This document shows, piece after piece, positions 4,216-24,349 of a stretch of 32,000 bases of DNA. The translations under genes were made by a program, and so were the position numbers. This DNA comes from Vibrio alginolyticus NBRC 15630 = ATCC 17749 (GTDB lineage: Bacteria > Pseudomonadota > Gammaproteobacteria > Enterobacterales > Vibrionaceae): the NCBI RefSeq assembly GCF_000354175.2, contig NC_022359.1, positions 1,020,001 to 1,052,000 of the forward strand, read 5' to 3'. The stretch's first letter is position 1. Each line of letters opens with the position of its first letter. Under the pieces are notes generated by a model. It was not told the origin of the DNA. It saw nothing but the letters and a program-made list of their open reading frames with translations, and searched no databases.

Positions 4216-4227
4216 CAACTGGACGTT

Positions 4228-4249: not shown

Positions 4250-4270
4250 TGAATGAAACAAGAGGTTTAT

Positions 4271-8030: not shown

Positions 8031-8062
8031 AGGTCCCTCTAATTTCAATTCTTTTGAATATG

Positions 8063-8107
8063 ACCAAAAACAAAATAAAGGGGCGAACATAGCAGTGTTC
8101 GCCCCTT
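8063..8107 (-). terminator. Rho-independent terminator after etfA
   Basis: On the minus strand, AAGGGGCGAAC-actgctat-GTTCGCCCCTT forms a perfect 11-bp GC-rich stem. It is followed by TTATTTTGTTTTT. Confidence 0.8.
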
Positions 8108-8117
8108 ATCTGATCGT

Positions 8118-9044
8118 TTAAAGTTGTTCGGCAAGCTGAGGTAGTACCTCAAATAAATCACCAACCAATCCATAGTCGGCAACTTCAAAGATAGGAGATT
8201 CTGGATCTTTGTTGATCGCGACAATCACTTTGGATTCCTTCATTCCTGCAAGATGCTGGATGGCACCGGAAATCCCAACCGCTATATAAAGCTTAGGTGC
8301 AACGATTTTACCGGTTTGACCCACTTGTAAGTCGTTGGCAACAAACCCGGCATCAACCGCCGCGCGAGAAGCGCCAATGGCAGCACCTAGTTTATCGGCT
8401 ACTTGTTCGATCAACGCGAAGTTCTCTTTGCTACCGACCCCGCGTCCACCTGACACAACCACCTCTGCCGCGCTTAATTCAGGACGTTCTGACACGGTTT
8501 TATCGACAGAAACCAATTCAACCATTGGAGCTGAGATAGTGACCTGCTGATGCTTAATATCAGCTTGGTTGTGACAAGTAACCGGCTCAAACGCAGACGC
8601 GCGCACGGTGATGACGCGAACCTTGTCGCTGGTGGTCACTTTGGCAAATGCGTTTCCTGCGTAAATAGGGCGGATAAAAGTGTTTTCATCGATAACTTGG
8701 ACAATATCGGAAATTTGCCCAACGCCGAACTTCGCTGCTACTCGAGGTGCAAGGTCTTTCCCTTTTGATGATGAGCTAGCCCAGATTGCGTCAAAACCTT
8801 CAGCAATACTCACTACAATAGGTGCGATACTCTCGGCAAATTGATGCTTAAGTTGCTCATCATCGACACAAATTACGTTTGATATACCATCAACGCGACA
8901 AGCTTGCTGAGCGACTTCTTCACACTGGTGGCCCACTACGATCAAAACATTGTCTTGGCTGACTTGTTTTGCTGCATTAACCACTTTGAGTGTGTCCGCA
9001 TGCAATTGGTTATTGTCATGCTCTGCTATGATTAAGTTCTTCAT
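8118..9044 (-). CDS. etfA: Electron transfer flavoprotein, alpha subunit
   Basis: 308 aa. The C-terminal FAD-binding region ([19 protein letters not shown]) is present. An ATGA overlap with etfB occurs at 9041-9044. Confidence 0.92.
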
Positions 9045-9793
9045 GAAATCACCTTCGCTTCGTTACGCAGCTTATCGAGAAGCTCTGAGACAGATTCAAC
9101 CTTGATGCCACCTTTTCTTTGCGCTGGCGGTGTGATTTCTTGAATGGTTTGGCTAAATACCACTTCAACACCCAGACTGTCAGGTGTGATGGTATCTAAC
9201 GGCTTGCGCTTAGCTTTCATGATATTAGGCAAAGAGGCAAAACGCGGTTCATTCAGGCGTAAGTCAGTACTGATCACCGCAGGTAAGTTCATCGCGACCG
9301 TCATCAAGCCGCCGTCCACTTCTCTCACGACCTGAACTTTTTGATCTTCAATCTTCACGTCGGAAGCGAAAGTTGCTTGAGGCCAGTCAAGTAGGGCGGC
9401 CAGCATCTGAGCCACTTGGTTGTTGTCAGTATCAATGGATTGTTTACCCGTAATCACAAGCTGTGCTTGTTCTTGCTCAACCAGAGCTTTGAGCAGCTTA
9501 GCGACGACCAATGGCTCTATTTTGTCTTCAGTATCGATATGAATAGCGCGATCGGCACCTAACGCAAGCGCAGTACGTAGTTGCTCCTGACACTGGCTAC
9601 CGCCGGCACTGACAACGATGACTTCATCTGCAATACCTTGCTCCTTTAGTCGTACGGCTTCTTCAACGGCTATTTCGCAAAATGGATTAATCGTCATCTT
9701 GACGTTATTGGTTTCAACATCGCTATGGTCCGCTTTCACGCGAACTTTAACGTAGGGATCAATGACCCTTTTGATTGGCACTAGTATTTTCAC
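9041..9793 (-). CDS. etfB: Electron transfer flavoprotein, beta subunit
   Basis: 250 aa with an [10 protein letters not shown]...[11 protein letters not shown] signature. It has a GTG start with AAGGAA 6 nt upstream. Confidence 0.92.
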
Positions 9794-9804
9794 GTTAGAT
9801 TCCT

Positions 9805-9844
9805 TTTACAGTGAAGACTATGTGTTTACAGTGAAGACGATGTG
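9805..9844. repeat. 20-bp tandem direct repeat (2 copies, 19/20 identical) in the etfB 5' leader
   Basis: TTTACAGTGAAGACTATGTG (9805-9824) is followed directly by TTTACAGTGAAGACGATGTG (9825-9844). Confidence 0.9.
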
Positions 9845-9861
9845 ATGACGTCTTTAAAATG

Positions 9862-9890
9862 ATGTTAATTTACCTTTACGTTTGCGTCAA
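9862..9890 (-). promoter_or_regulatory. Candidate sigma70 promoter of etfBA
   Basis: On the minus strand: TTGACG (-35; plus coordinates 9885-9890), a 17-nt spacer, then TAACAT (-10; 9862-9867). The palindromic motif fills the -35 and spacer. Confidence 0.45.
9875..9890. promoter_or_regulatory. 16-bp imperfect palindrome TTTACGTTTGCGTCAA, a candidate operator shared by the divergent etf promoters
   Basis: Its reverse complement TTGACGCAAACGTAAA matches 13 of 16 positions of TTGACGTTTACGTAAA at 11702-11717. The half-sites are TTkACG. Confidence 0.5.
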
Positions 9891-9903
9891 CTTTAAATAT
9901 ATT
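9875..9903 (+). promoter_or_regulatory. Candidate sigma70 promoter of the ETF-QO gene
   Basis: TTTACG (9875-9880), a 17-nt spacer, then TATATT (9898-9903). It shares the palindrome with the divergent etfBA promoter. Confidence 0.4.
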
Positions 9904-9948
9904 GTTGATTAACAAGTTGGCAACATGCAAAGAAAAAGGAATGCAATC

Positions 9949-11586
9949 ATGGAAAGAGACTGCATGGAATTTGATGTTCTGATTGTAGGCGCTGGTCCCG
10001 CAGGTTTGTCTGCGGCATGCCGAATCAAACAATTAGCAGCAGAAAAAAAACAAGACCTCTCTGTTTGCGTGGTAGAAAAAGGTTCTGAAGTTGGAGCGCA
10101 TATTTTATCGGGTGCGGTGTTTGAAACGCGGAGTTTGGATGAGCTTTTTCCCGACTGGGAAGAGAAAGGCGCGCCGCTCAATACCAAAGTAAACCAAGAT
10201 AAAACCTACTATCTAGGCAATGACATCAATGGTCATGAACTGCCTTCTTGGGCGGTGCCTAATACGTTACATAACAAAGGTAATTACATCATAAGTTTGG
10301 GCAGTCTATGCCGATGGATGGCGTTGCAGGCTGAGAACTTGGGGGTGGAGGTCTACCCAGGTTTTACCGCCAGTCAAGCGATCATCGATGAAGATAGTCG
10401 TGTTTGTGGCGTGATCACGGGCGATATGGGATTAGATAAAAATGGTGAACAAAAAGGAAATTTCGAACCTGGTATTGAACTACGAGCGAAGTTTACTTTA
10501 TTTGCTGAAGGCGCACGGGGGCATATTGGTAAGCAGTTGATTAACCGATTTAATCTTGCTGAAGAGAAAACGCCTCAACACTACGCTATCGGTTTTAAAG
10601 AGCTGTGGGAAATCCCATCAGAGCAGCATCAGCAAGGTTTAGTAGTGCACGGATTAGGTTGGCCGTTATCAAATGAAGCTACAGGTGGCAGTTATCTCTA
10701 CCATTTAGAGGGAAACCAAGTTGCCGTCGGGTTGATTGTTGACTTGAATTATAAGAATCCGCACTTGAGTCCATTTGATGAGTTTCAACGTTTTAAACAC
10801 CACCCGTTGATTGAGCAATACCTCAAAAATGGGAAGCGTATTAGCTATGGCGCGAGAGCGATCACCAAGGGCGGCTTTCATTCGCTTCCCACGCAACAGT
10901 TTGCTGGTGGCTTGTTAATTGGCTGTGATGCAGGAACACTTAACGGCGCTAAAATCAAAGGCACACACACCGCAATGAAATCTGGCATGCTTGCCGCTGA
11001 AGCAGTATGTGAAGCCCTTGAGAGTCAGTCAGTTACTGCTGATTATCAAAAGCATTTCAAACAGTCTTGGCTGTATGAAGAGCTTTATCAAGCACGTAAC
11101 TTCTCAAGTGGTATTCACCGCTTTGGATCGTGGCTGGGCGGTGGTTTAGCGCTGCTGGAACATAACGTATTAAAAGGCAAAGCTAAGTGGCATATCCGCT
11201 GTGATAAGCCTGATCATCAGTCTCTGTTATTGGCGGAAAACAGCAATGAAATTGTCTATCCGAAGCCTGATGGCGTGTTAAGTTTCGATCGCCTCTCTTC
11301 TGTTTATCTATCCAATATCTTCCATGAGGAAGATCAACCATGCCACTTACGACTGGAGAACCAGCGGATCCCTATTGAGCAGAACCTTGAATTATATGCA
11401 GAGCCAGCACAGCGCTATTGTCCGGCTGGCGTGTATGAAATCGTACAGGGGGAGCAGCAGCCAGAGCTGCAAATAAATGCGGCCAACTGTATCCACTGTA
11501 AGACCTGCGACATCAAAGATCCAAGTCAAAATATTACCTGGATTCCGCCAGAAGGTGGTGGTGGTCCGAACTATCCAAATATGTAA
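9949..11586 (+). CDS. etfD: Electron transfer flavoprotein-ubiquinone oxidoreductase (ETF-QO)
   Basis: It has the FAD motif DVLIVGAGPAGLSAA and a C-terminal 4Fe-4S region (CPAGVYE...CIHCKTCDIKDP). I prefer the start at 9949 (MERDCMEFDV, AAGGA 6 nt upstream); the ORF-track start is 9925. Confidence 0.9.
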   Translation: MERDCMEFDVLIVGAGPAGLSAACRIKQLAAEKKQDLSVCVVEKGSEVGAHILSGAVFETRSLDELFPDWEEKGAPLNTKVNQDKTYYLGNDINGHELPSWAVPNTLHNKGNYIISLGSLCRWMALQAENLGVEVYPGFTASQAIIDEDSRVCGVITGDMGLDKNGEQKGNFEPGIELRAKFTLFAEGARGHIGKQLINRFNLAEEKTPQHYAIGFKELWEIPSEQHQQGLVVHGLGWPLSNEATGGSYLYHLEGNQVAVGLIVDLNYKNPHLSPFDEFQRFKHHPLIEQYLKNGKRISYGARAITKGGFHSLPTQQFAGGLLIGCDAGTLNGAKIKGTHTAMKSGMLAAEAVCEALESQSVTADYQKHFKQSWLYEELYQARNFSSGIHRFGSWLGGGLALLEHNVLKGKAKWHIRCDKPDHQSLLLAENSNEIVYPKPDGVLSFDRLSSVYLSNIFHEEDQPCHLRLENQRIPIEQNLELYAEPAQRYCPAGVYEIVQGEQQPELQINAANCIHCKTCDIKDPSQNITWIPPEGGGGPNYPNM

Positions 11587-11701
11587 GCGTTTGAGAATAA
11601 TTTTTATTAACAATTTATTTACTTAAAGTTTGCGTTAGTTCAAATCTTTCTCGATGAACTCGATTGCAACTTAATCTTTCAGGCACTATTCTGATTTTAA
11701 A

Positions 11702-11717
11702 TTGACGTTTACGTAAA
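11702..11717. promoter_or_regulatory. Second copy of the TTGACG-N3-ACGTAAA operator-like motif. It contains the perfect 12-bp palindrome GTTTACGTAAAC.
   Basis: TTGACGTTTACGTAAA was read directly from the sequence, 112 bp upstream of the first ABC gene. Confidence 0.5.
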
Positions 11718-11828
11718 CTGAATACAAAGTTGATGCATAGGTGTAAAAGCGGTTACCAGTATCAAAGTTAGGTTTGATCAAATAGTGCTCAATGGAACGC
11801 ACTTAAAATAACGAAAGGGAGATCAACT

Positions 11829-12629
11829 ATGGTATCGGAATCGCCTCTGTTGCAGGTAAACGATATTTCATTGGCTTTTGGTGGGGTGAAAGCTTTAACT
11901 GACGTGAGCTTCCATGTGAATGAAAAGGAAATTTTTTCAATCATTGGTCCAAACGGTGCAGGTAAAACCTCAATGCTCAATTGCATCTCTGGTCGATACA
12001 CACCAAACAAAGGCTCTGTAATCTTCGCTGGAGATGACGTAACTAAACGTACACCAAGCCAACGAGCTGAGTTAGGGCTGGGAAGAACCTTCCAAAACTT
12101 AGCGCTCTTTTCTCATATGTCGGTACTGGACAACATCATGGTTGGCCGACACCACCTACTGAAAAATAACTTCGTCACGGGGCCACTCTATTGGTTCTCC
12201 AATGCGCAGAAAGAAGAGATGGCGCACCGCAAATATGTGGAAGACGTGATCGATTTTCTAGAAATCCAGCACATCCGAAAAGCGACTGCAGGCACCCTAT
12301 CTTACGGCTTACGTAAGCGTGTAGAGCTTGCTCGTGCCATTGCCTTAAAACCTAAGTTACTGCTGCTTGATGAACCAATGGCAGGTATGAACTTGGAAGA
12401 AAAGGAAGACATGGCACGTTACATCATGGATCTGAATGAAGAATTAGATATCACGATCATCATGATTGAGCACGACATGGGCGTGGTCATGGACATCTCT
12501 AATCGCGTTTTGGTTTTGGATTTCGGTAAACACATTGCTACGGGTGAGCCTGAAGAAGTGATGGCCAACCCACATGTGAAACAAGCGTACTTAGGCGAAG
12601 AGTTACCGACATTAGAGGAGAGTGCATAA
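11829..12629 (+). CDS. ABC transporter ATP-binding protein, LivG-like (HAAT family)
   Basis: Walker A (GPNGAGKT), the signature motif (LSYGLRKRVELA) and Walker B (LLLLDEP) are all present. An AAGGGAG RBS precedes the start. Confidence 0.9.
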   Translation: MVSESPLLQVNDISLAFGGVKALTDVSFHVNEKEIFSIIGPNGAGKTSMLNCISGRYTPNKGSVIFAGDDVTKRTPSQRAELGLGRTFQNLALFSHMSVLDNIMVGRHHLLKNNFVTGPLYWFSNAQKEEMAHRKYVEDVIDFLEIQHIRKATAGTLSYGLRKRVELARAIALKPKLLLLDEPMAGMNLEEKEDMARYIMDLNEELDITIIMIEHDMGVVMDISNRVLVLDFGKHIATGEPEEVMANPHVKQAYLGEELPTLEESA

Positions 12630-14581
12630 TGGCACAGCAACATAATGATTGGGCAGATATAACCCGCTTAGATACCTTTCCAAAAGTGTTGCAACACAAT
12701 GCCAAGAACTGGCCCGAACAAGTCGCAATGCGTGAAAAGGAGTTTGGTATATGGCGAGAGTTCACTTGGAAGGATTATGAAAACCGCGTCAAGTGGATGG
12801 CACTGGCACTACGAGATTTGGGTATTGGTGAGCAAGATGTCGTTGGTTTGCTAGGTGATAACCGCCCTGAATGGGTATGGGGCGAGTTAGCGGCACATGC
12901 GATCAAAGGTTTCTCGCTGGGCATCTATCAAGATTCTATGCACGAAGAGGTGGCGTACCTTATCAACTATGCAAAAGCAAAAGTCGTGATTGCCGAAGAT
13001 GAAGAGCAATGCGACAAGCTGCTTGAGCTTGGTGATGAAATTCCTAGCGTTGAATACATTATTTACTGCGATCCTCGTGGAATGCGTAAATACGATGATC
13101 CAAGATTAATTGATGTTGAACAGGTCTACAAAAAAGGTCAGCTGATTGATAAAGCGGACCCAGACAAATATCTCAATATGGTTGTTGAAACCAAAGGCAG
13201 CGATCTTTCAATTCTTTGTACTACGTCCGGTACGACTTCTAAACCAAAATTGGCTCAGCTACACAGTGGCACGTTCTTGGATCACTGTGCGGCTTACTTG
13301 CGTGCAGACCCTCGTTCCCCAGGCGACAACTACGTTTCTGTTCTGCCTTTGCCTTGGATTATGGAGCAGGTTTACGTGGTTGGTCAGGCGTTGATTTCTC
13401 GTCAAATCGTTAACTTTGTGGAAGAACAAGAAACCATGATGTCCGACTTGCGTGAAATCGGTCCAAACTTTGTGCTGTTAGCGCCACGTGTGTGGGAAAA
13501 CATTGTGGCAGACGTGTCTGCACGAATGATGGATTCGACACCGTTTAAGCAAAAGATGTACAAACTGGGCATGAGCTTAGCCAACAAAGCGCTGGAGCAG
13601 GGTAAACGCTCTAAGTTGGCTGAATGGATTCTTCTGCGTGCTCTGCGTGACCGTTTAGGGTTTTCGAACCTGACATCTGCGGCAACCGGCGGTGCGGCGA
13701 TGGGACCGGATACTTTCCGTTACCTACAAGCTATTGGTGTGCCACTTAAGCAGCTTTATGGTCAGACCGAAATGTGTGGCGCATACACCGTGCACCAAGC
13801 GGATGATGTGGATTACGATTCCGTTGGTGTTGCGTTTGATAATGCAGAAGTGAAAGTCATCAACCCGGACAGCAATGGCGTTGGTGAAATCATCGCGAAA
13901 AGTACAGGCATGTTTACTGGCTACTTAAACAACCAAGCAGCATATGATGAAGATGTTCAAGATGGTTGGATGCACACAGGCGATGCGGGCTATTTTAAAG
14001 ATTCCGGTCACTTGGTGGTGATTGATCGTCTGAAAGATATGTCGGAAACCAGCCATGGCGACCGTTATTCGCCACAGTTTATCGAAAACAAACTCAAGTT
14101 CTCGCCGTTTATTGCAGAAGCCGTGGTGGTAGGTAAAGGTCGACCTTGGCTGTCTGCCATCATCTGTATTCGCTATGCGATCGTCGCGAAGTGGGCAGAG
14201 CAACGCGGCTTGGCATTTACCAACTACACCAACTTATCTGCTCAACCAGAAGTGTACCAAGCGATTCGTGAAGAAGTTCAAAAAGTGAACGAATCCCTAC
14301 CGGATGCACAGAAGATCAGCAAATTCATTCTACTTTACAAAGAGCTGGATGCCGACGATGGAGAGCTAACTCGCACACGTAAAGTACGCCGTGGTGTGGT
14401 TGCAGAGAAATACGGAGACATCATCGAAACCATCTACAGCGACGATCCAAAAGTCGATGTCGATACAGTGATCACTTATCAAGATGGCACCAAAACACGC
14501 ATTCAAACGTCGCTAGTTATTGAAACGCTTATTGAGCATGAGCCAACACTAGTGGATAGCGAACAACGGAGGATCGCATAG
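12629..14581 (+). CDS. AMP-forming acyl-CoA synthetase, long-chain (ACSL/FAA1-like) type, embedded in the ABC operon
   Basis: 650 aa. It has the canonical ANL motifs TSGTTSKPK, YGQTE and GWMHTGDAGY...VIDRLKD. It overlaps both neighbours by 1 nt (TAATG at 12627-12631; TAGTG at 14579-14583). Confidence 0.85.
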   Translation: MAQQHNDWADITRLDTFPKVLQHNAKNWPEQVAMREKEFGIWREFTWKDYENRVKWMALALRDLGIGEQDVVGLLGDNRPEWVWGELAAHAIKGFSLGIYQDSMHEEVAYLINYAKAKVVIAEDEEQCDKLLELGDEIPSVEYIIYCDPRGMRKYDDPRLIDVEQVYKKGQLIDKADPDKYLNMVVETKGSDLSILCTTSGTTSKPKLAQLHSGTFLDHCAAYLRADPRSPGDNYVSVLPLPWIMEQVYVVGQALISRQIVNFVEEQETMMSDLREIGPNFVLLAPRVWENIVADVSARMMDSTPFKQKMYKLGMSLANKALEQGKRSKLAEWILLRALRDRLGFSNLTSAATGGAAMGPDTFRYLQAIGVPLKQLYGQTEMCGAYTVHQADDVDYDSVGVAFDNAEVKVINPDSNGVGEIIAKSTGMFTGYLNNQAAYDEDVQDGWMHTGDAGYFKDSGHLVVIDRLKDMSETSHGDRYSPQFIENKLKFSPFIAEAVVVGKGRPWLSAIICIRYAIVAKWAEQRGLAFTNYTNLSAQPEVYQAIREEVQKVNESLPDAQKISKFILLYKELDADDGELTRTRKVRRGVVAEKYGDIIETIYSDDPKVDVDTVITYQDGTKTRIQTSLVIETLIEHEPTLVDSEQRRIA

Positions 14582-15474
14582 TGAATACGGATTTATTACT
14601 GCAACTCGTCATTAATGGCGTGATCGTTGGCATGTTGTATGGCGTTGTCGCCATGTGCTTTGTATTGATTTACAAATCGACCCAGGTGGTCAACTTTGCT
14701 CAGGGTGAGTTCCTGTTGATTGGCGCATGGGTATGTTGGGCGGCATTGGTACACCTACAGTTACCGTTTTTTATAGGCTTTTTACTCACGCTCGCGTTCA
14801 TGATGATTTTTGGTATCGCCGTGCAAACCATTGTGCTCAGACCGTTGATTGGTGAACCGATTATCTCTGTGATCATGGTGACCATTGGTCTATCGATGTT
14901 TTTCCAAGCGCTGATGAAGTGGATATTCGGTGTCTCTGCTGTGTCGTACCCGCAAGTGTTCGAAACCAACGTGGTGAATATCGGAGGTTTGAATGTTGAG
15001 TTTGCTTACATTCTGAGCTTGATCTTCTCAATGCTCATCATGGGCGCGTTCTACTGGTTCTTCAAATTCAGCAAAATGGGTCTGGCAATGCGCGCAACGG
15101 CATTCAACCAGCAAGTAGCCCAGAGTCTTGGCATTTCCATCAAGAAAGTGTTCGCCATCAGTTGGGCCATTTCGGCAATGGTATCTGCAACAGCAGGGAT
15201 TGTTATCGGTATCGTTAACGGCGTATCTGACGCGCTATCCATTATTGGTATCAAAGTTTTCCCAGCCGTTATTTTAGGTGGCTTAGATTCGGTAGTCGGC
15301 GCAATTGTCGGTGGTATCACCATCGGGGTGCTAGAAAACTTGGCTGAGTTTTTTGATAGCCAATACCTGCAAGTGGGTAACTTATACAACATCGCACCAT
15401 TCTATGTGCTGTTAATCATTCTTGCCTTCAAGCCATATGGCCTGTTTGGTACCAAAGATATTGAGCGTATTTAA
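14581..15474 (+). CDS. ABC transporter permease, LivH-like
   Basis: 297 aa, polytopic, with a LivH-type N-terminus (LLQLVINGVIVGMLYGVVA). GTG start. Confidence 0.88.
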   Translation: MNTDLLLQLVINGVIVGMLYGVVAMCFVLIYKSTQVVNFAQGEFLLIGAWVCWAALVHLQLPFFIGFLLTLAFMMIFGIAVQTIVLRPLIGEPIISVIMVTIGLSMFFQALMKWIFGVSAVSYPQVFETNVVNIGGLNVEFAYILSLIFSMLIMGAFYWFFKFSKMGLAMRATAFNQQVAQSLGISIKKVFAISWAISAMVSATAGIVIGIVNGVSDALSIIGIKVFPAVILGGLDSVVGAIVGGITIGVLENLAEFFDSQYLQVGNLYNIAPFYVLLIILAFKPYGLFGTKDIERI

Positions 15475-15485
15475 GGAGAAATAAC

Positions 15486-16553
15486 ATGGCTCAACTTAGC
15501 ATGCGCCCATGTGGGGATTTTCGAACCACATACAAAAGCGATACGCCAATTTTTGAAACCAAAACCATCAGAAGCCTTGCGATTGCAGGTGTCATCGCCA
15601 TGCTGGCAGCACCGCTGGTCTTGGATATTTACTTCCTAAACCTGTTTATTCAGATTGCATACCTCGGTATCGCGGCATTGGGCTTAAACATTTTGGTTGG
15701 TTTTACCGGACAAATCTCGCTAGGTCACGGTGCGTTCTTTGGTTTTGGCGCCTTTGCATCGGCTTGGTTAAATAACCAGTTTAACATTCCAGTCGTGTTT
15801 GCGATTCCGCTTGCGGGTTACTTAACCATGATTGTGGGGATGCTGTTTGGTCTGCCAGCGGCTCGAATTAAAGGTTTATATCTAGCTATCGCAACGTTGG
15901 CGGCGCAGTTTATTTTAGAGGACTTCTTTGCTCGCGCAGATTGGTTCAGTGGCGGCTCATACGGTGCAAGCGCGAACCCAATTAATTTGTTTGGTTTTGA
16001 GTTTACGACTGACGAAAGCTTCTTCTACATCGCTCTGTTTGCGCTGATCTTCATGTATATGTGGGCATCAAACTTAATCCGTTCTCGTGACGGTCGCGCG
16101 TTTGTCTCAGTACGAGATCACTATCTGTCAGCAGAGATCATGGGCATCAACCTAACCAAGTATCGTCTGCTCTCATTTGGAGTGTGTGCATTCTATGCGG
16201 GCATCGGGGGTGCACTCTACGGACATTATCTAGGGTTTGTATCAGCAGAAGGCTTCACCATCATGATGTCTATCCAGTTCTTGGCAATGATCATCATTGG
16301 TGGCTTAGGCTCAGTCAAAGGTACGCTGATGGGGACGATATTTATCGTATTGCTGCCTGAAGTTTTAGAGTTTGGCGTAACGGGGCTTTCAGCGTTTGGT
16401 GATACCACCGCTTTCACTGATGGTCTGGCTTACTTCAAAGAGATGGCGATTGGTTTAGTCATCATGCTGTTCCTCATTTTCGAACCTCAAGGATTATCGC
16501 ATCGCTGGCAACAGATTCGAGCATATTGGAAACATTATCCGTTCTCATATTAA
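15486..16553 (+). CDS. ABC transporter permease, LivM-like
   Basis: 355 aa, polytopic, with the motif [16 protein letters not shown] typical of LivM-family permeases. Confidence 0.88.
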
Positions 16554-16598
16554 CGTGGAATTAAGTGGAATATACCTCAATAACAAGGACAACGAGTT

Positions 16599-17843
16599 AT
16601 GAACAAAGGACATTTAGCGACAACGTTGGTGCTGTCATCTGCACTGTTTACTACCGCAACTTGGGCAAAAGATTCTGTGTTTGTCGGGCAATTAGTCGAC
16701 TTTTCTGGACCAACGGCTTATGTGAGCAAGCCTTATGGTTCTGGCGTGCGAGACGCATTGCGTTGGATTAACCAAAACGGTGGCATTAACGGTACCGAGC
16801 TCGAATTTGAAACAGTAGACATGGCGTACAAAGTACCAGTGGCGATTTCTAACTATAAACGTTGGGTGGCGCGTAAAGACATGGTTGCGCTGCAAGGTTG
16901 GGGTACGGCGGATACCGAAGCACTTATTTCGTTTGTTACCAAAGACAAAGTGCCGGTGTTCTCTGCTTCTTACTCTGGTCACTTAACTGACCCAACTGGC
17001 AAAAACCCAAAAACCGCGAAACCAGCGCCTTATAACTTCTTTTATGGTGCGTCGTACTCAGATGCGTGTCGTGCGCTAGTTAAGTGGGCGAAAGAAGATT
17101 GGGAATCTAAGGGCAATCAAGGTGCGCCGAAATTTACGCACATTGGCGATAACCATCCATTCCCGAATGCGCCAAAAGAAGCGTGTGCAGAGTACGCCAA
17201 AGAACTTGGTTTTGATGTGCAAAACCCAGTCGTTGTGTCACTAAAACCAGGGGACTTCAAAGCGCAATGTTTGTCGCTGAAAGAGTCAGGCACCAACTAC
17301 GGTTACATTGCTAATATCGGTAGCTCGGTTATCTCACTAGTGAAGTCTTGTAACACGGTTGGGACAGAGTTCCAGTACATGGCAAACATTTGGGGCGGCG
17401 ATAAGCCAGTGCTTGAAGCAGCAGGCGATGGCCTTAAAGATTACGTTTTCCCAGGTATGACAGCGTTTTGGGGAGATGATAATGAAGGCATGAAACTGGT
17501 CCGTGAGATTTCTAAGCAGTCTGAATCAGAGCCGGGCGAATTCAGAACTCACCATTACATTCGCGGTATTTGTTCTGCGTTCTATATGAAAGAAGCAATG
17601 GAGTGGGCGAAAGACAACGGTGGTATCACAGGTGAAAACATCAAGAAGGGCATGTATGTCCATGACAACTGGGTACCACAAGGCTTAGAAGGTGTTTGTG
17701 TCCCTGCGAACTGGAAACCGGAAGATCACCGAGGCACAACAACCGTGAACGTCTTTATGGGCAACAACGATGGCGGCGCAGTTGATATCAAGAAAGTATC
17801 ACAGGTGACATTGTCACGTCGTGACGATTGGCTAGGTTACTAA
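16599..17843 (+). CDS. Periplasmic substrate-binding protein of the ABC importer (type I PBP, LivK-like fold). Ligand unknown.
   Basis: It has a signal peptide ([11 protein letters not shown]). The 414-aa length and operon position fit. Its sequence is not obviously close to classical Leu/Ile/Val binders. Confidence 0.8.
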
Positions 17844-17884
17844 TCTACGACTTATTAATAACAAAGCTTACTGAAAATAAGGAT

Positions 17885-17906
17885 GGGTGAGAGAACACTC
17901 TCACCC
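17885..17906 (+). other. Intercistronic RNA hairpin between the SBP and LivF-like genes
   Basis: GGGTGAGAG-aaca-CTCTCACCC forms a perfect 9-bp stem. No T-tract follows. It ends 4 nt before the AAGGAG RBS of the next gene. Confidence 0.6.
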
Positions 17907-17923
17907 TAGCAAGGAGTAGCTTG

Positions 17924-18745
17924 ATGGCTGAATTAGCAACGAATATCGAACCGGCAGAAATACTGCTTTCAGTGAACAACATTGAAGTCGTCTACGACGA
18001 AGTAATACTAGTACTTCGCGGTGTGAGTTTAGAAGTTCCAAAAGGGCAGATTGTGACCTTACTGGGGGCCAACGGTGCGGGTAAATCCACAACGTTGAAA
18101 GCCATTTCTGGTTTATTGAAAACCGAAGATGGTGAAGTGACGCGCGGCGAAATCAACTTCATGGGCGAGCGTATAGACAACAAAAGCCCGGAAGAGATCG
18201 TCCGTTCGGGCATCTTCCAAGTTATGGAAGGGCGCCGAATTGTTGAAGATATGACGGTAATAGAAAATCTTCGCTTAGGCGCTTATACACGCACTGACAA
18301 CGAAGTTGAACAAGACATCGAAATGGTGTTTGACTATTTCCCGCGACTCAAAGAGCGCACTGGCCTGGCGGGCTATTTGTCTGGCGGTGAGCAACAAATG
18401 TTAGCGATTGGCCGAGCGTTAATGGCTCGACCGAAGATGATTTTGTTGGACGAACCGTCTATGGGGCTTTCTCCACTGCTAGTTAAAGAAGTATTCAGCA
18501 TTATTAACAAGATCAACAAAGAGCAAGGTATTACCATGCTTTTGGTTGAACAGAATGCCAACTTCGCTCTTCAAGCGGCCGATTACGGTTACATCATGGA
18601 ATCAGGCAAAATCGTACTAGATGGCAGCAAGCACGAATTGCTAAACAATGAAGACGTAAAAGAATTCTACCTTGGCGGCGGCGATGAAGATCGCAAGAGC
18701 TTTAAGAATCTGAAATCTTACAAACGTCGTAAGCGTTGGTTGTAA
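17924..18745 (+). CDS. ABC transporter ATP-binding protein, LivF-like, with a basic C-terminal tail
   Basis: Walker A (GANGAGKST), the signature motif (LSGGEQQML) and Walker B (ILLDEP) are present. The ATG at 17924 lies 7 nt after AAGGAG. The C-terminus KSFKNLKSYKRRKRWL extends beyond a typical LivF. Confidence 0.88.
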   Translation: MAELATNIEPAEILLSVNNIEVVYDEVILVLRGVSLEVPKGQIVTLLGANGAGKSTTLKAISGLLKTEDGEVTRGEINFMGERIDNKSPEEIVRSGIFQVMEGRRIVEDMTVIENLRLGAYTRTDNEVEQDIEMVFDYFPRLKERTGLAGYLSGGEQQMLAIGRALMARPKMILLDEPSMGLSPLLVKEVFSIINKINKEQGITMLLVEQNANFALQAADYGYIMESGKIVLDGSKHELLNNEDVKEFYLGGGDEDRKSFKNLKSYKRRKRWL

Positions 18746-18754
18746 GGAGCAAGG

Positions 18755-19957
18755 ATGAACGAACTATTTGATGCGAAAGAATCGTTGTCTCTACAGGCGC
18801 GAGAAGAGTCGTTGTTTCAACGTCTGCCAACGTTGATTGAAAATTCGAAAGTCAATAGCGAACATTACGCGGCGCATTTTTCTGGGTTAGAGCCTACATT
18901 GGCAAACAATCGTGAAGGGCTTGCTCAGTTCCCGATTACACGTAAGTTCAATGTACCTAATCAGCAGCAACTTAAACCGCCGTTTGGTGGCTTAAATAGC
19001 GTTGCCATTGGTCAAATGGCGCGTGTTTTTCAGTCTCCTGGGCCTTTATATGAGGCTCAAACGGATGAGGCCGATTTCTGGCGTATGGGGCGCGCGTTTC
19101 ACGCTGCTGGGTTCTGTGCGGGTGATTTAGTGCATAACACGCTCTCTTACCATTTCTCTCCTGGCGGATTTATTATGGATGGTGGCGCAAGGGCTTGTGG
19201 CTGTGCGGTATTTCCGGCTGGAGTAGGCAATACCGAAGCGCAAATAGAGGCAATTAAACAGCTTCAACCTAATGGTTACACTGGCACACCTTCTTATTTG
19301 CTGACGTTGCTACAAAAGTACCAAGAGAAATACAATGAGCTGCCTAGCTTTGAGAAAGCTCTGGTCTCTGGTGAAGCGGTTACAGCAGGCATGCAACAGA
19401 TGTTTGAGGAAAAAGGCATTGCAGTCTTTCAAGCCTACGCAAGTGCAGAGCTTGGTTTGATTGCTTATCAAGTGTCTGGTGAACAAGGATTAGTGATTGC
19501 CGAAGATATTATTGTTGAAATCGTTGATCCTGATGGTGTTCCTGTACAACCGGGAGAAGTCGGTGAAGTCGTTGTAACGTCGTTCGATGAGAAGTTCCCG
19601 CTGATTCGCTACGCAACGGGAGATTTATCGGCATATCTAGAGACAAGTTCTGATTCTTCACGCACGAATGCACGAATTAAGGGCTGGATGGGACGAGCAG
19701 ACTCCGCGGTGAAAGTAAAAGGGCTGTTTGTTTATCCGCATCAAATCCAAGAAGTCTGTCGTCGCCACGATATTAAAGGCTCCTTGAAAATTGAGCGCGA
19801 TGGCTTCAACGATGCCATTACTTTTTGTTGTCATGATGTGCATGTATCAGCAGAGGACATTCAAGCAACACTACAGTCAGTCACTAAACTGAAAGGCAAT
19901 GTCCAGTTTGTACCGAACCAAGTGGAGCAGCCGTTAATCAATGATCTTCGCAGTTAA
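18755..19957 (+). CDS. Phenylacetate-CoA ligase (PaaK)/F390-synthetase-family adenylate-forming enzyme homologue with a degenerate P-loop
   Basis: 400 aa. PaaK-like blocks are present (GTPSYLLTLL, AYASAELG, IRYATGDL, GRADSAVKVKG). Where SSGTTGKP is expected, the sequence reads QSPGPLYE. Confidence 0.75.
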   Translation: MNELFDAKESLSLQAREESLFQRLPTLIENSKVNSEHYAAHFSGLEPTLANNREGLAQFPITRKFNVPNQQQLKPPFGGLNSVAIGQMARVFQSPGPLYEAQTDEADFWRMGRAFHAAGFCAGDLVHNTLSYHFSPGGFIMDGGARACGCAVFPAGVGNTEAQIEAIKQLQPNGYTGTPSYLLTLLQKYQEKYNELPSFEKALVSGEAVTAGMQQMFEEKGIAVFQAYASAELGLIAYQVSGEQGLVIAEDIIVEIVDPDGVPVQPGEVGEVVVTSFDEKFPLIRYATGDLSAYLETSSDSSRTNARIKGWMGRADSAVKVKGLFVYPHQIQEVCRRHDIKGSLKIERDGFNDAITFCCHDVHVSAEDIQATLQSVTKLKGNVQFVPNQVEQPLINDLRS

Positions 19958-20029
19958 CTCATTGGTGGCATAAGTGCAGTAGAAAGTGGTTGTCATAAAA
20001 AACTAACAACGTCAGACAAAAGGCTAGAA

Positions 20030-20068
20030 AAGGGATACCACATTGCGCTGCGTATCCCTTTATTTTTT
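20030..20068 (+). terminator. Rho-independent terminator of the ABC/ligase operon
   Basis: AAGGGATAC...GTATCCCTT forms a 9-bp stem with a 13-nt loop, followed by TATTTTTT. Confidence 0.65.
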
Positions 20069-20093
20069 ACTACCGCAATCAGGGAGCGGGTAA

Positions 20094-20690
20094 ATGAAAC
20101 AGGCACCAATGATTAACACACAATTCTGGGATGATTTGTTTATCCGAGGCACTATGCCTTGGGATGCCCAATCGACACCTCAAGAACTCAAGGACTATCT
20201 CGACAATTCACTTCATGTAGGCCAGTCAGTGTTTATTCCTGGGTGTGGTGCCGCTTATGAACTGAGCACTTTTATTCAATATGGGCATGACGTGATCGCG
20301 ATGGATTACAGCCAAGAAGCGGTAAAAATGGCGCAATCAGCGTTAGGTAACTACAAAGATAAAGTCGTATTGGGTGATGTATTTAATGCCGATTTTTCTC
20401 ACTCGTTTGATGTCATTTACGAGCGGGCCTTTCTCGCAGCACTACCAAGAGACATGTGGTCAGAATACTTTGCTATGGTGGATAAATTATTGCCAAGCGG
20501 AGGTTTTCTAATTGGTTTTTTCGTCATTGATGATAATTACCTATCACGCTTCCCTCCATTTTGTTTGAGAAGTGGGGAACTGGCATCTTTTCTAGAGCCC
20601 ACGTTTGAACTTGTGGAATCCTCAGTGGTGGTAAACAGTGTTGAGGTTTTTAAAGGCAGAGAGCAATGGATGGTGTGGCAGAAACGTTAG
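20094..20690 (+). CDS. SAM-dependent methyltransferase, TPMT family (thiol/halide methyltransferase-like)
   Basis: The N-terminus FWDDLFIRGTMPWD resembles the W..(F/Y)....TPWD motif of TPMT/HOL enzymes. The SAM-binding motif is FIPGCGAAYE. 198 aa. Confidence 0.7.
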   Translation: MKQAPMINTQFWDDLFIRGTMPWDAQSTPQELKDYLDNSLHVGQSVFIPGCGAAYELSTFIQYGHDVIAMDYSQEAVKMAQSALGNYKDKVVLGDVFNADFSHSFDVIYERAFLAALPRDMWSEYFAMVDKLLPSGGFLIGFFVIDDNYLSRFPPFCLRSGELASFLEPTFELVESSVVVNSVEVFKGREQWMVWQKR

Positions 20691-20978: not shown

Positions 20979-21737
20979 TTATACTATTTTAGGTTGACCA
21001 TCTGATGCGGTGGCACCGCCGTCTACAGGTAGGTTTACGCCATTAATGAAAGATGCGTCATCACTTGCCAAGAAAGTCACGACAGACGCAATTTCTTCAG
21101 GTTCGGCTGCTCGGCCAAGCGCAATGCGCTCATTGAATTTATCGCGGATGTCCTGCGGCCAGCCGTTTGTCATGTTGGTTTTTACTAAACTTGGGCATAC
21201 GGCGTTAATTCTTACCCCATCCGCACCATGGTCCAATGCCATCGCTCGGGTAAGGTTCACCACTGCACCTTTACTCGCGCAATAGAATGCGGCACCCCAG
21301 TCACCACCCAAACCGGAAACGGACGCGGTATTTACCATACAACCTTTCGTTTTTAAGAGTTCAGGCAAAGCAAACTTCGCGCAATAAACGACGCCGTCAA
21401 TGTTTACACCAGAGATCTTCTTCCAGTCTTCCACACTACCTTCAATCACGGAACCAGGGACATGTACGCCAGCATTGTTTACTAAAATATCCAGTTTACC
21501 GAAACGGGTAACAACATCAGAAATCAGTGCTGCGACTTTTTCTGGGTCAGAAACATCAATAGAATGCGCAGACACACGCTGTTTATCAAAGCCCTCAACG
21601 GCGTTTGCCAACTGCTCTTCATTCCAATCGGCAAGAGCGACGTTTGCGCCTTCTTCATACAAACGTTTTGCGATGGCCAAACCAATGCCATTGGCAGAAC
21701 CAGTGACGAGTGCGACTTTATTTTTTAATCCTCTCAT
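20979..21737 (-). CDS. Short-chain dehydrogenase/reductase, probably an acetoin/diacetyl reductase (AlsO/BudC-like role)
   Basis: It has the classical SDR motifs TGSANGIG, NNAG and YCASK. An ATGA overlap with alsS makes it the third gene of the acetoin operon. Confidence 0.75.
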   Translation of the reverse strand: MRGLKNKVALVTGSANGIGLAIAKRLYEEGANVALADWNEEQLANAVEGFDKQRVSAHSIDVSDPEKVAALISDVVTRFGKLDILVNNAGVHVPGSVIEGSVEDWKKISGVNIDGVVYCAKFALPELLKTKGCMVNTASVSGLGGDWGAAFYCASKGAVVNLTRAMALDHGADGVRINAVCPSLVKTNMTNGWPQDIRDKFNERIALGRAAEPEEIASVVTFLASDDASFINGVNLPVDGGATASDGQPKIV

Positions 21738-23437
21738 GCGATTTCTCCTTCGAAACTTACAAAAACGGGATCTTGATTTTTCTCTGTGCGCGGCAACATC
21801 AGTTTGTCGTTGTCGCTGTAATCTACGGGGATAGCCACCACTGCTGGTCCTTCAACGTCCATGGCTTTATTCAATGTCGGTAGCAATTCGTGTTGACTAG
21901 TCACTGCGAAGCCTTTCGCGCCAAATGACTCGGCGTAGGCCTTGAAATCAATTGGTCCAAATTTCACACCAGAGCAGCGCTGATATTTGTTGATCTCTTG
22001 CATTTCTACCATGTTGTAGGCGTTATCAACCCACACAATATGGACGATATTGCAGTTCAGTCTAACCGCGGTTTCTAACTCCATGCTCGATTGCATAAAA
22101 CCGCCGTCTCCTGATATCGATACCACTTTGCTACCAGGTTTTAGTAGGCTGGCACCAATGGCCCATGGCAGTGCAACGCCCATCGTTTGTTGGCCGTTAG
22201 ACACCAGCATTTGGCGAGCTCGAAAACAGCTTAAGTAACGAGCGATCCAGATGTGGAAGCTCCCCATATCAAGGCATAGCGTGGTATCTGGTGTGATGAT
22301 AGATTGCATGGCTTTAATTAGCGCCAGTGGATGAAACCCTTGCTTGTTATAGACTTTGGGATAAGCCTTGATCACTTGCCGTTGCAGTGCTACCTCTTCC
22401 AGTATTGAAAGTGCCGTTGGGGAAAGGCGAGCATATTCAGAGATATAGCTGCCCATTTTATCTAATGACTGCGCAATGTTTCCGACGATTTCAACACAAG
22501 GTTGATAATTAAGTTGGTATTCTGCTGGTTCAATATCGAGGTGAATCACTGGGTTGCGGTGGCTGTTCCAAAGCTCAGGGTCATACTCTATTGGGCTAAA
22601 GCCGATGGTGAGAATTAAATCGGCGTCCCGCAGTAAAACATCGCCAGGTTGGTTATTAAACAAACCGACACGCCCAGCAAAGTGATGATAGTAATTGATG
22701 TCTACCGTGCCGGCGGCCTGGTAAGTGCCGACAACGGGTAGCTGCGTATTTTGAAGAAATCGGGCGATAGCAGCAGCGTTTTGACTGCGGCTCGCGTGAA
22801 GGCCAAGTAAAACCACACAGCGCTTTGCTTTACTGATTCGACTGACCGCTTCTTCGATTGCTACGATGTCTGCGCAACCAGGCTGTGTGTAAGGCGAGGG
22901 GACAATAATGTCCGTTTGGGTTTGCTCGGATAAAACATCTTGGGGGAGACTCAAAAAGCAAGCCCCAGGACGACCTGACTCTGCGATACGAAATGCGTTC
23001 GCCATGATCTCGCTTGCGGCGTCCACATGCTGCACTTCAGCACTGAACTTAGTTATAGAGCGAAAAATACTGACGGTATCCATGCTCTGGTGTGTTTGTT
23101 TTTGCTGGTCAGTTCGTTTCACCGCACCACCGATAGCAATCAGCGGATCGCCTTCGGAGTTTGCTGTTGCCACCCCCGTAACTAGATTTCCACAGCCAGG
23201 GCCTGACGTAACCATTGTGACGCCTGCTTTGCCGGTTAGTCTTCCCATAACGCCCGCCATAAATGCGCCGTTAGCCTCGTGGCGTACCGGAATCATTTGG
23301 ATGTTAGTGTCTTCAATCGCATCGAACAGTCGATCGATTTTTGCACCGGGAATACCGAAAATGTACTTAATGCCGAGAGACTCTAGCTGTTGAGCGATCA
23401 ACTGAGCTCCATTTTTATTTGAAGGTTTGGATTGCAT
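21734..23437 (-). CDS. alsS: Catabolic acetolactate synthase (ThDP-dependent)
   Basis: 567 aa. The ThDP motif is GDGGFMQSSMELETAVR. The N-terminus is GAQLIAQQLESLGIKYIFGIPGA. It lies between the acetolactate decarboxylase and the SDR. Confidence 0.9.
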   Translation of the reverse strand: MQSKPSNKNGAQLIAQQLESLGIKYIFGIPGAKIDRLFDAIEDTNIQMIPVRHEANGAFMAGVMGRLTGKAGVTMVTSGPGCGNLVTGVATANSEGDPLIAIGGAVKRTDQQKQTHQSMDTVSIFRSITKFSAEVQHVDAASEIMANAFRIAESGRPGACFLSLPQDVLSEQTQTDIIVPSPYTQPGCADIVAIEEAVSRISKAKRCVVLLGLHASRSQNAAAIARFLQNTQLPVVGTYQAAGTVDINYYHHFAGRVGLFNNQPGDVLLRDADLILTIGFSPIEYDPELWNSHRNPVIHLDIEPAEYQLNYQPCVEIVGNIAQSLDKMGSYISEYARLSPTALSILEEVALQRQVIKAYPKVYNKQGFHPLALIKAMQSIITPDTTLCLDMGSFHIWIARYLSCFRARQMLVSNGQQTMGVALPWAIGASLLKPGSKVVSISGDGGFMQSSMELETAVRLNCNIVHIVWVDNAYNMVEMQEINKYQRCSGVKFGPIDFKAYAESFGAKGFAVTSQHELLPTLNKAMDVEGPAVVAIPVDYSDNDKLMLPRTEKNQDPVFVSFEGEIA

Positions 23438-23466
23438 TTGTTGTCCTTATTATTTGCCTGACTTTG

Positions 23467-24252
23467 TTACTTTTCCGCCTTTTCTATGGCGGTATTTATA
23501 TCTTCCGGAGCCAAATTGGCGTTGAGGAAGTCTGTCGATACTGGGGTATCAATCACTAGCCGTGAGACTTTGCCAATCTGGAGAAATCCTGACGAAATGC
23601 TGTAATCCTGGATATGACCACCTCCTTGGCGGTCATCGGTAATAAAATGTTCGTGATAGCCGGGTACATTGATGCCAGTCGTATATTTAGGACTGCGAAA
23701 GCCGGCGACCACGCCTTGCTTATGCGTGAAGCGGAATGTTGGTTGTTCTTTGACCACTTCAAGCATTGGTCGATAAGGGCGTGTTTGTTTAGGTACGGTA
23801 CGAGTACGAACTGAATCGAAAACACCATCAATGCGCACTGCGCAAAATAGGTTATCGCTTGGAACCAGGTCGTCTATGAGGCTATGGACTTCATGACGTG
23901 ACATGCGCGATGTCAATGGCAGCTCGATATCAGGCTTAAAAAAAGTCATGACAGCAAAGGGCGTTTTTTGCTCTAGGTCTGCCGGGTTTGCGGAGCCATC
24001 CGACTTGAGTTGAAAAACTTCCTTATCAAAAGCAATCAACTCACCATCCAATTCATTGAACGTACCTAAACCAAAATCCCCATGTTTCAGCAGTTCTTCT
24101 ATGGTTGTCGAGCCTTCGTAAACACCAGCGATCAAAGCACTCATTAACGAAGTCTGATAAATCTCACCATCTCCGGTAACGTGATGGTATTCAGAAAATT
24201 CTTTCGCTACTTCAAGCGAACAAGCGCATAGAGGGTTATAAAATCCACGCAT
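23467..24252 (-). CDS. budA: Alpha-acetolactate decarboxylase
   Basis: The blocks [33 protein letters not shown] and [16 protein letters not shown] closely match known BudA/AlsD proteins. Confidence 0.92.
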
Positions 24253-24349
24253 GAGTAAGACCAGTTATGCAATGAAGAGTATATTTAGATTGACTTCTAC
24301 ACGGTGCTAAATCCAATATAAAAAAGATTTATTTTGATATGGAAAATAT

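Follow-up and report, generated by a model that had tools for sequence, protein, structure and literature searches.

A Liv-type ABC importer operon of Vibrio alginolyticus with an embedded acyl-CoA synthetase: a candidate system for coupled uptake and activation of carboxylates

The genome of Vibrio alginolyticus NBRC 15630 = ATCC 17749 carries an operon in which the genes for a Liv-type ATP-binding cassette (ABC) importer are combined with genes for an acyl-CoA synthetase and a PaaK-fold protein. It occupies positions 11829-19957, on the + strand, of the 32,000-nucleotide stretch that we analysed (contig NC_022359.1, positions 1,020,001 to 1,052,000; hereafter the window). Pfam and NCBIfam assign its seven co-directional open reading frames (ORFs), in order, to a LivG-like ATPase (G), the ACSL-type synthetase that we call L1, LivH-like and LivM-like permeases (H and M), a periplasmic solute-binding protein (SBP; S in gene orders), a LivF-like ATPase (F) and the PaaK-fold protein, which we call L2. 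These assignments bear out the families and coordinates proposed in an initial annotation of this DNA. We believe that the operon represents a widespread and distinct subfamily of the hydrophobic amino acid uptake (HAAT) importers, in which a dedicated L1 would always be present and a P-loop-less L2 often, and that on balance it probably imports an aliphatic carboxylate that L1 would trap as a CoA thioester.

Both junctions of L1 are 1-nt stop/start overlaps (TAATG at 12627-12631 between G and L1, and TAGTG at 14579-14583 between L1 and H), which had been pointed out before and can be read directly in the sequence. The LivF-like ORF opens with TTG-ATG (17921-17926), and because AGGAG sits 7 nt upstream of the ATG, translation is likelier to begin at ATG 17924 than at TTG 17921. 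The closing terminator, which the initial annotation placed at 20030-20068 as the only convincing one, is confirmed by folding, with a hairpin at 20030-20061 followed by UUUAUUUUUU (-14.3 kcal/mol, z = -2.3). That view needs correction in one respect, however, in that a GC-rich stem-loop inside the operon at 17885-17906, which has no U-tract, folds more strongly than the terminator hairpin (-16.6 kcal/mol, z = -4.2; 0 of 200 shuffles fold equally well). This stem-loop may stabilise the upstream mRNA or act as a partial transcription attenuator, yielding surplus binding protein. A scan of positions 9500-20500 against Rfam found no RNA families. On the 3' side of the operon terminator lies a gene for a TPMT-like methyltransferase (20094-20690), with a counterpart in Vibrio sp. 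(locus L001, 17559-18158); the two Vibrio proteins are 54% identical.

Table 1. Features of the operon and its surroundings (window positions unless another locus is named).
Feature	Position	Strand	Basis or remark
LivG-like ABC ATPase, 266 aa	11829-12629	+	PF00005 (ABC_tran) and PF12399 (BCA_ABC_TP_C)
L1, ACSL/FadD11-like acyl-CoA synthetase, 650 aa	12629-14581	+	PF00501 (AMP-binding) and PF23562 (AMP-binding_C_3)
LivH-like permease, 297 aa	14581-15474	+	PF02653 (BPD_transp_2)
LivM-like permease, 355 aa	15486-16553	+	PF02653 (BPD_transp_2)
Periplasmic solute-binding protein (SBP), 414 aa	16599-17843	+	PF13458 (Peripla_BP_6)
Stem-loop inside the operon, after the SBP gene, without U-tract	17885-17906	+	Folding
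LivF-like ABC ATPase, 274 aa	17921-18745	+	PF00005; probable start ATG 17924
Basic C-terminal extension of LivF-like ATPase, 21 aa, GDEDRKSFKNLKSYKRRKRWL	18680-18742	+	Candidate mark of the ligase-linked subfamily
L2, PaaK-fold protein, 400 aa	18755-19957	+	AMP-binding; best match PaaK
Intrinsic terminator closing the operon	20030-20069	+	Hairpin and U-run
Palindromic operator, 16 bp, TTGACGTTTACGTAAA	11702-11717		127 nt upstream of first gene; putative MerR-type (LiuR-like) site
Second operator copy, TTTACGTTTGCGTCAA	9875-9890		Divergent etfBA-aacS / ETF-QO promoter region
Acetoacetate-CoA ligase (aacS)	6000-8090	-	911.9 bits against a cutoff of 639
Electron-transfer flavoprotein (ETF) alpha and beta subunits (etfBA)	8118-9793	-	Pfam/NCBIfam
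ETF-ubiquinone oxidoreductase (ETF-QO)	9925-11586	+	Pfam/NCBIfam
DcaP-family porin genes in other loci	L086 2054-3094; L004 7950-8990; L005 7939-8988; L006 1277-2332

The argument for a distinct subfamily begins with the conservation of this gene set. Relatives of L1 were gathered with a 40-sequence alignment obtained from a search of 50%-identity representatives, one genome per species was scanned, and in the best 80 of 589 confirmed matches the ORFs were compared with the seven window proteins. All seven genes are present in 53 of these 80 loci, those from G to F in 62, and the exact order G-L1-H-M-S-F-L2 is kept in 44; most loci outside the full order are broken by contig ends. The loci span Pseudomonadota (alpha, beta and gamma), Desulfobacterota, Myxococcota, Acidobacteriota, Chloroflexi and Firmicutes, and the taxa that carry the cluster include Vibrio, Shewanella, Colwellia, Thalassospira, Bradyrhizobium, Xanthobacter, Methylobacterium and Lautropia as well as Geobacteraceae, Myxococcaceae, Desulfarculaceae, Acidobacteriota (with a rotated order), Chloroflexi and a Firmicutes metagenome-assembled genome (MAG). 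Searches anchored elsewhere agree, since two L2 homologues and three SBP homologues all lie inside the same cluster. Thus the linkage of ligase and transporter genes, which the initial annotation had named beforehand as the test that could refute it, holds whether the anchor is L1, L2, the SBP or the LivF tail described below. Even the close packing around L1 recurs: independent gene calls from Xanthomonadaceae, Marinobacter and Aestuariirhabdus show G and L1 overlapping by 1 nt, and L1 and H by 4 nt. Fusions of the ATPase to the ligase, a possibility that had also been raised, were found neither in the 80 loci nor among the 150 best 50%-identity representatives (lengths <=726 aa). In high-GC loci, long ORFs (877-1003 aa) that look like an extended 'L1' or 'G' were rejected as fusions, being out-of-frame upstream extensions in which both genes stay separate ORFs.

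Some loci depart from the Vibrio order. In a type-2 arrangement (loci L018, L053, L055-L058 and L081) L1 stands ahead of the LivG-like gene, and many loci found through the LivF tail (L090, L117, L129, L202 and others) have this arrangement or permutations such as G-H-M-S-L1-F and F-G-L1-H. In the type-2 loci G, F, L1 and L2 keep identities of 58, 63, 55 and 44%, whereas H, M and the SBP drop to 34, 39 and 24%. Because identity is retained so unevenly, a conserved cytoplasmic set appears to serve diverged membrane and periplasmic parts.

The transporter itself has the components of the HAAT family (TC 3.A.1.4), namely two BPD_transp_2 permeases (PF02653 at 1.2e-29 and 4.8e-39), ATPases of the LivG and LivF types and a Peripla_BP_6 SBP, and yet all scores fall far under the cutoffs of the Liv equivalog models. 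The LivG-like ATPase, which carries a short acidic C-terminal tail, finds LivG as its best NCBIfam match (5e-77) at 258 bits against an equivalog cutoff of 362, and the LivF-like ATPase finds LivF (4e-68) at 229 bits against 441. The LivH-like permease is about equally similar to LivH and UrtB, with both scores under cutoff. Among type-1 loci the LivF-like protein is the most conserved product of the cluster (median identity 77%), and the LivG-like protein has a median identity of 71%; in conservation these two ATPases lead the cluster.

The LivF-like ATPase also carries what we consider the most useful mark of the subfamily. The Lys/Arg-rich C-terminal tail that the initial annotation singled out is present in the window copy (KSFKNLKSYKRRKRWL) and absent from E. 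coli LivF, which ends ...AYLGG. The LivF-like cluster copies listed all extend with a sequence near RKSFKNLKSYKRRKRWL, and the last eight residues (…YKRRKRWL; pattern …[YF][KR]RRKRW[LIM]) are near-invariant from Vibrio to Chloroflexi and Firmicutes, whereas other LivF paralogues at the same loci end …EWLEV and have no tail. When the tail was back-translated and used to scan metagenome contigs, 105 of 120 matches fell at the C-terminus of a LivF-like ORF. An L1-like gene (33-65% identity, often in a different gene order) accompanies the tail in 31/31 loci that show F, H and M, a count biased towards loci with L1; one short-flanked locus, L140, shows none. Wherever both sides had 2.3 kb or more free, an L1-like gene was present. 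Because all 31 of these loci have L1 and just nine have L2, the tail appears to mark a large family of L1-linked HAAT systems in which L2 would be an accessory of one branch.

L1 can be recognised as a predicted adenylate-forming acyl-CoA synthetase of the ANL type, since its core motifs are complete: TSGTTSKPK at 199-207 (P-loop, A3), YGQTE at 377-381 (A5), TGD at 450-452 (A7) and TRTRK585 (A10). In the family alignment of 40 sequences all these motif positions are either invariant or conserved to at least 90%: S200 and G201 are invariant, T199, T202, P206 and K207 are at least 90% conserved, and D452 (A7) and T581/K585 (A10) are invariant. The protein bears a conserved C-terminal extension of about 45 aa and is acidic, with a net charge of -25. 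A Vibrio alginolyticus protein matches it at 100% identity, and V. parahaemolyticus proteins match it at 97%. Its matches in the PDB are fatty-acyl-CoA synthetases, luciferases and FadD5 (8r2q).

L2 presents a different picture. Its predicted structure (predicted local distance difference test, pLDDT, 88) has the two-domain PaaK fold, with a Foldseek match at E = 8e-35 and TM-scores of 0.85-0.86 to 4r1m and 2y4o, and of 0.85-0.88 to PaaK2 and 2-hydroxyisobutyryl-CoA ligase (HCL). The AlphaFold2 model lies nearest to thioester-forming conformers (TM 0.88 versus 0.72), a predicted conformation that we do not count as evidence. The A5, A7 and A8 motifs are retained, and most orthologues also keep the GK motif within a C-terminal NDGKVIxDxR that we read as A10. 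In the alignment, however, the PaaK P-loop SSGTTGKP stands opposite QSPG----P, with four residues deleted, and SPGP replaces the P-loop in 56/56 aligned sequences (the window copy and 55 orthologues). The A10 lysine is lost as well in L2 of the window (EQPLINDLR), of Vibrio sp. 99-8-1 (NELPLIDDKR for Vibrio sp.) and of Shewanella abyssi. Because the P-loop is missing and, in Vibrio, the A10 lysine is missing too, we conclude that L2 is, judging from its motifs, not a canonical ligase. The initial annotation's count of two adenylate-forming ligases is thus upheld for L1, whose motifs are intact, and not for L2.

Nor does L2 behave as a decaying gene. Of the cluster genes it diverges fastest between two Vibrio species (66% identity versus 86-95%) and evolves 3-7 times faster than its neighbours, and we considered whether it is a pseudogene; values of pN 0.23 and pS 0.84 between these species (nonsynonymous and synonymous differences per site) indicate purifying selection, and the idea was rejected. 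The gene is optional, being absent from six L1-anchored loci that have room for it. The names given to it in databases go no further than 'phenylacetate-CoA ligase family', 'AMP-binding' or 'F390 synthetase'. The PaaK fold and the existence of HAAT SBPs for benzoate and coumarate derivatives beside CoA ligases in R. palustris (PMC3223731; PDB 4evs, 4f8j) could prompt the view that the system takes up and activates a phenylacetate-like aromatic acid, with L2 as its specific aryl-CoA ligase. We regard this as very improbable, given that L2 is without a P-loop and scores 131.7 bits against the PaaK equivalog cutoff of 646.3, that most tail-bearing systems are without L2 altogether, and that paa, box or bad genes are not recurrent near the cluster.

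What the importer carries must be judged largely from its SBP. The protein matches PF13458 at 6e-60, and its model (pLDDT 87.6) has the fold of a type-I periplasmic binding protein, with TM 0.79 to both 3eaf and 3lkb; residues 1-21 have low pLDDT and are disordered, consistent with a signal peptide. The subfamily shares the signatures GWGT(A/G)DTE, SASYS, PYNFF and N-x-WG-x-D. A solved structure for this subfamily already exists, as the nearest structural neighbour, 3eaf, an unannotated structural-genomics SBP from Aeropyrum pernix, shares these signatures, including NVWGxDE; on this basis the SBP family may reach into the Archaea. The fold does not settle the ligand, because among the structural neighbours the ligands are valine, fatty acids, aromatic acids or urea. 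Among its PDB relatives 4n03, 4q6w and 4evs bind fatty or aromatic acids.

One reading that the SBP helps to judge is that the operon encodes a true branched-chain amino-acid importer feeding Leu/Ile/Val catabolism under the control of the regulator LiuR, and that the ligases are merely co-expressed metabolic enzymes, with acids or lipids further downstream as their substrates. Each of the five transporter proteins is, after all, Liv-like, and the second-best structural neighbour of the SBP, 3lkb, is valine-bound. The details of the SBP run the other way: 3lkb is without the subfamily signatures, and the NCBIfam LivJ/K model scores 19.6 bits on the SBP against a cutoff of 477. In E. coli LivJ, we take Tyr202 and Glu226 to hold the amino-acid main chain (alpha-ammonium and alpha-carboxylate), with Glu226 as the ligand of the amino group. 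An hhalign comparison with LivJ (probability 97.6%) places Ile240 opposite Tyr202. Opposite Glu226 it places Ile264, a variable residue flanked by the conserved N263 and W265, and acidic residues do not occur at this position in the SBP family. Because an equivalent of Glu226 is missing, and because four marine gammaproteobacterial loci have a gene for a DcaP porin, of a carboxylate type, directly ahead of the operon, free branched-chain amino acids are probably not what is carried. It also bears on this reading that Leu/Ile/Val catabolism needs no CoA ligase, acyl-CoA arising from the 2-oxoacid dehydrogenase, and that L1 is wedged between ATPase and permease genes with stop/start overlaps across phyla; the equivalog scores noted above argue in the same direction. 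On the other side, Liv-type transporters flanked by acsL in Calditenuaceae archaea, organisms that can grow on these amino acids, have been read as amino-acid transporters (PMC12979851). R. palustris SBPs of COG0683, however, bind fatty, dicarboxylic and aromatic acids, not Leu/Ile/Val (PMC3223731). Weighing these points together, we consider a dedicated amino-acid importer quite unlikely.

The regulatory evidence centres on a palindromic operator. The pattern TTKACGTNNNCGTMAA occurs in just two places in the 32-kb window, against 0.07 expected, one upstream of the operon and the other in the divergent promoter region between etfBA-aacS and ETF-QO. It lies at a similar distance from the cluster in Vibrio sp. 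(locus L001, -131) and in a Rhodospirillaceae genome (L010, -126), and in a Xanthomonadaceae MAG (L083) it precedes both an adjacent MerR gene and the cluster. In other taxa no operator was found upstream of the cluster beyond Vibrio, this one Rhodospirillaceae genome and this one Xanthomonadaceae MAG, so regulation appears to be lineage-specific. Published work places etfABD in the branched-chain degradation pathway, with LiuR as its master regulator in Vibrio (PMC3858670), and describes the LiuR regulon as one for branched-chain amino-acid utilisation (PMC3223726); livFGHKM, lcfA and paaK are listed among LiuR targets in a few genomes (PMC5343134 supplement). These regulon assignments, with liv genes among the targets, favour the amino-acid reading, and the listing of livFGHKM, lcfA and paaK also speaks for the carboxylate reading proposed below. 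In two transcriptomes of V. parahaemolyticus CHN25, the orthologues RS18425-RS18445 are up together with aacS and the liu/ivd cluster RS18535-RS18590 (PMC7756092; PMC8783578). The initial annotation had argued against Leu/Ile/Val as substrate, and on the strength of the SBP, which has no acid at the Glu226 position, and of the DcaP porins this stands; but the aacS, etf and ETF-QO neighbours that it invoked are no argument against such a link, because the shared operator ties the operon to the branched-chain acyl-CoA catabolic regulon.

The neighbouring genes in other genomes are informative as well. Genes of the liu type (isovaleryl-CoA dehydrogenase, methylcrotonyl-CoA carboxylase alpha and beta, HMG-CoA lyase), or those for methylmalonate-semialdehyde dehydrogenase and an acyl-CoA dehydrogenase, lie next to the cluster in eight lineages or more, and neighbours of this kind are seen in Vibrio sp., Xanthobacter, Methylobacterium, Craurococcus, Maritalea, Falsiroseomonas, Methyloligella, an Acidobacteriota MAG and a Xanthomonadaceae MAG. 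ETF-QO adjoins the cluster in Inmirania too. In 11 loci (e.g. L022 16049-21848; L035; L078) an Acs/MbcS-like acyl-CoA synthetase of about 555 aa, a third ligase, lies beside or inside the cluster, and in Craurococcus its gene is followed directly by those for isovaleryl-CoA dehydrogenase and methylcrotonyl-CoA carboxylase. The DcaP-family outer-membrane porin gene stands directly upstream of the livG-like gene and co-directional with it in Marinobacter, Shewanella, Alteromonadaceae and Colwellia. Further upstream, a divergent gene for a PAS_7 hybrid sensor kinase of about 1150 aa is found in Marinobacter, Shewanella and Alteromonadaceae (L086, L004, L005) and in Nitrincola (L007). Elsewhere in the window, an acetoin/2,3-butanediol cluster lies on the minus strand at 20979-25231 (an SDR, an acetolactate synthase-like thiamine pyrophosphate enzyme and alpha-acetolactate decarboxylase, with a divergent LysR regulator). 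Positions 1-5821 and 26868-29268 hold unrelated genes: Mrp antiporter subunits, a sugar cluster of GntR, GH4 6-phospho-glucosidase and PTS EIICB, and cytochrome bd oxidase subunits.

Given these observations, we favour, with moderate confidence, a role for the operon in the import of an aliphatic carboxylate and its trapping as a CoA thioester by L1, a proposal whose substrate class, trapping step and regulator we infer. The periplasmic binding protein would capture an aliphatic carboxylic acid, which would be imported by the LivH/LivM-like permeases together with the LivG/LivF-like ATPases, and L1 would make the CoA thioester at once, thereby trapping a membrane-permeant weak acid. ATP-driven uptake would pay only with such immediate thioesterification, because protonated short acids should leak back across membranes. 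The acyl-CoA would then pass to acyl-CoA dehydrogenases, with electrons going to ETF and ETF-QO, the products of the neighbouring genes. Control in Vibrio would be exerted through a MerR/LiuR-type operator common to the operon, etfBA-aacS and etfD. Because that operator is shared, the likeliest candidates for the substrate are branched short-chain acids (isovalerate, 2-methylbutyrate, isobutyrate) or comparable short-to-medium-chain fatty acids, which would feed the liu/ivd pathways.

Several observations weigh against this proposal. The liu/ivd neighbours are confined to a minority of loci, and the 'LiuR' label for the putative operator derives from MerR adjacency in one MAG and from published regulon membership; Bradyrhizobiaceae have a Crp/Fnr-type regulator instead, and Alteromonadales have the PAS_7 hybrid kinase. 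Activation of short chains could in fact be the task of the Acs/MbcS-like enzyme, and the role of L1 would then be undecided. The valine-bound 3lkb is, as noted, the second-closest structural neighbour of the SBP.

A further difficulty is that L1 is of the long ACSL/FadD11 type, usually tied to long chains and not to C4-C5 acids, and in NCBIfam and the PDB it is matched best by FadD11, FadD5 and long-chain acyl-CoA synthetases. It seems appropriate to ask, then, whether the substrate lies on the side of C8-C18 acids or dicarboxylates and not among the C4-C6 branched acids. The fourth structural neighbour of the SBP, 4n03, bears the description 'fatty acid ABC transporter SBP', DcaP owes its name to the uptake of dicarboxylates, and the HAAT SBPs beside the R. 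palustris pim operon bind C7-C14 fatty and dicarboxylic acids (PMC3223731). The type-2 variants, which keep G, F and L1 with very different H, M and SBP, suggest that many substrates are served across the family. However, genes for fadBA-type beta-oxidation are not recurrent beside the cluster, where the recurrent partners are liu/ivd, ETF-QO and the MbcS/Acs-like synthetase, and the Vibrio operator ties the operon to etf/aacS, which the literature assigns to a branched-chain catabolic regulon and not to a fatty-acid regulator. We judge a longer-chain or dicarboxylic substrate to be unlikely, and continue to prefer the branched or short-to-medium-chain acids.

Uptake and activation might be joined more intimately still. 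Because the LivF tail is near-invariant and occurs strictly with L1, and because the cytoplasmic parts are unusually conserved, the comparisons suggest a physical complex. L1 would then be a stoichiometric cytoplasmic subunit of the importer, and the family would constitute a 'group-translocating' carboxylate ABC importer distributed from Pseudomonadota to Firmicutes and possibly Archaea; we offer this only tentatively, as a rather doubtful extension of the trapping proposal. In such a complex the amphipathic basic tail of the LivF-like ATPase (…FKNLKSYKRRKRWL) would dock the acidic L1 and, where present, L2, and the imported acid would be thioesterified while leaving the permease. L2, in which the AMP, ribose and hinge motifs are kept, might serve as a non-catalytic adaptor or sensor, or as an enzyme for which the transporter, acting in trans, completes or gates the nucleotide site.

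The module is strictly conserved and present in tractable organisms, among them V. alginolyticus, V. parahaemolyticus, Marinobacter, Shewanella and Bradyrhizobium, and offers a direct test case for an ABC importer hard-wired to CoA activation, by which membrane-permeant weak acids would be metabolically trapped. Concrete handles on the coupling of transport and activation are provided by the near-invariant LivF tail and by the PaaK paralogue that has no P-loop, and models of how short- and branched-chain fatty acids turn over in marine and soil bacteria would gain from a correct assignment of the substrate.

Among known systems, the E. coli LivJ/LivK-LivHMGF transporter (TC 3.A.1.4.1) has the same five-component build, but here livG and livH are separated by a ligase gene and livF is followed by a PaaK-like one, the LivF-like ATPase has a 21-aa invariant basic tail, and the SBP is without equivalents of LivJ Glu226 and Tyr202. 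The principle of making uptake productive by immediate CoA thioesterification is familiar from vectorial acylation by FadL/FadD in E. coli and from mycobacterial mce1 with fadD5, where the ligase gene belongs to the transporter operon. FadL, however, is an outer-membrane channel without an ATP-driven inner-membrane step, Mce is a different class of transporter, and neither uses a HAAT importer with a periplasmic SBP. With the PaaK ligases (2y4o, 2y27, 4r1l) and 2-hydroxyisobutyryl-CoA ligase (6he0), L2 shares the two-domain fold described above, but its P-loop is four residues shorter in every orthologue, the window copy has no A10 lysine, and paa catabolic genes do not accompany it.

Also comparable are the HAAT systems of R. 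palustris, in which carboxylate-binding COG0683 SBPs occur near a CoA ligase for the imported acid (Giuliani et al. 2011, PMC3223731). There the ligase gene belongs to a neighbouring catabolic operon (pimA or p-coumarate-CoA ligase) and is not embedded among transporter genes, neither an invariant ATPase tail nor a PaaK paralogue without P-loop is described, and none of the solved R. palustris SBPs is close to the present one. In Calditenuaceae a K01897-type acsL beside Liv-type transporter genes provides a likeness that we take from its description (PMC12979851), a passing remark in which amino-acid substrates are assumed and conservation, tail or function is not analysed. A C7/C8 fatty-acid ABC transporter identified by sequencing of transposons with random barcodes (RB-TnSeq) in Cupriavidus and Ralstonia could not be mapped to the present family, nor could the data of the R. 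palustris ligand screen be assigned to an orthologue. Regarding the architecture, the searchable literature, outside which most subscription journals lie, yielded only transcriptome tables, regulon tables and the one passing remark (PMC12979851), and no characterisation of the seven-gene architecture, the LivF tail or the P-loop-less PaaK paralogue was found in it, in keeping with the initial annotation, which knew of no biochemical study of this arrangement. All parts of the system are of known kinds, and transport-coupled activation is a known principle; the conservation of the LivF tail, the degenerate L2 site and the shared operator are new findings.

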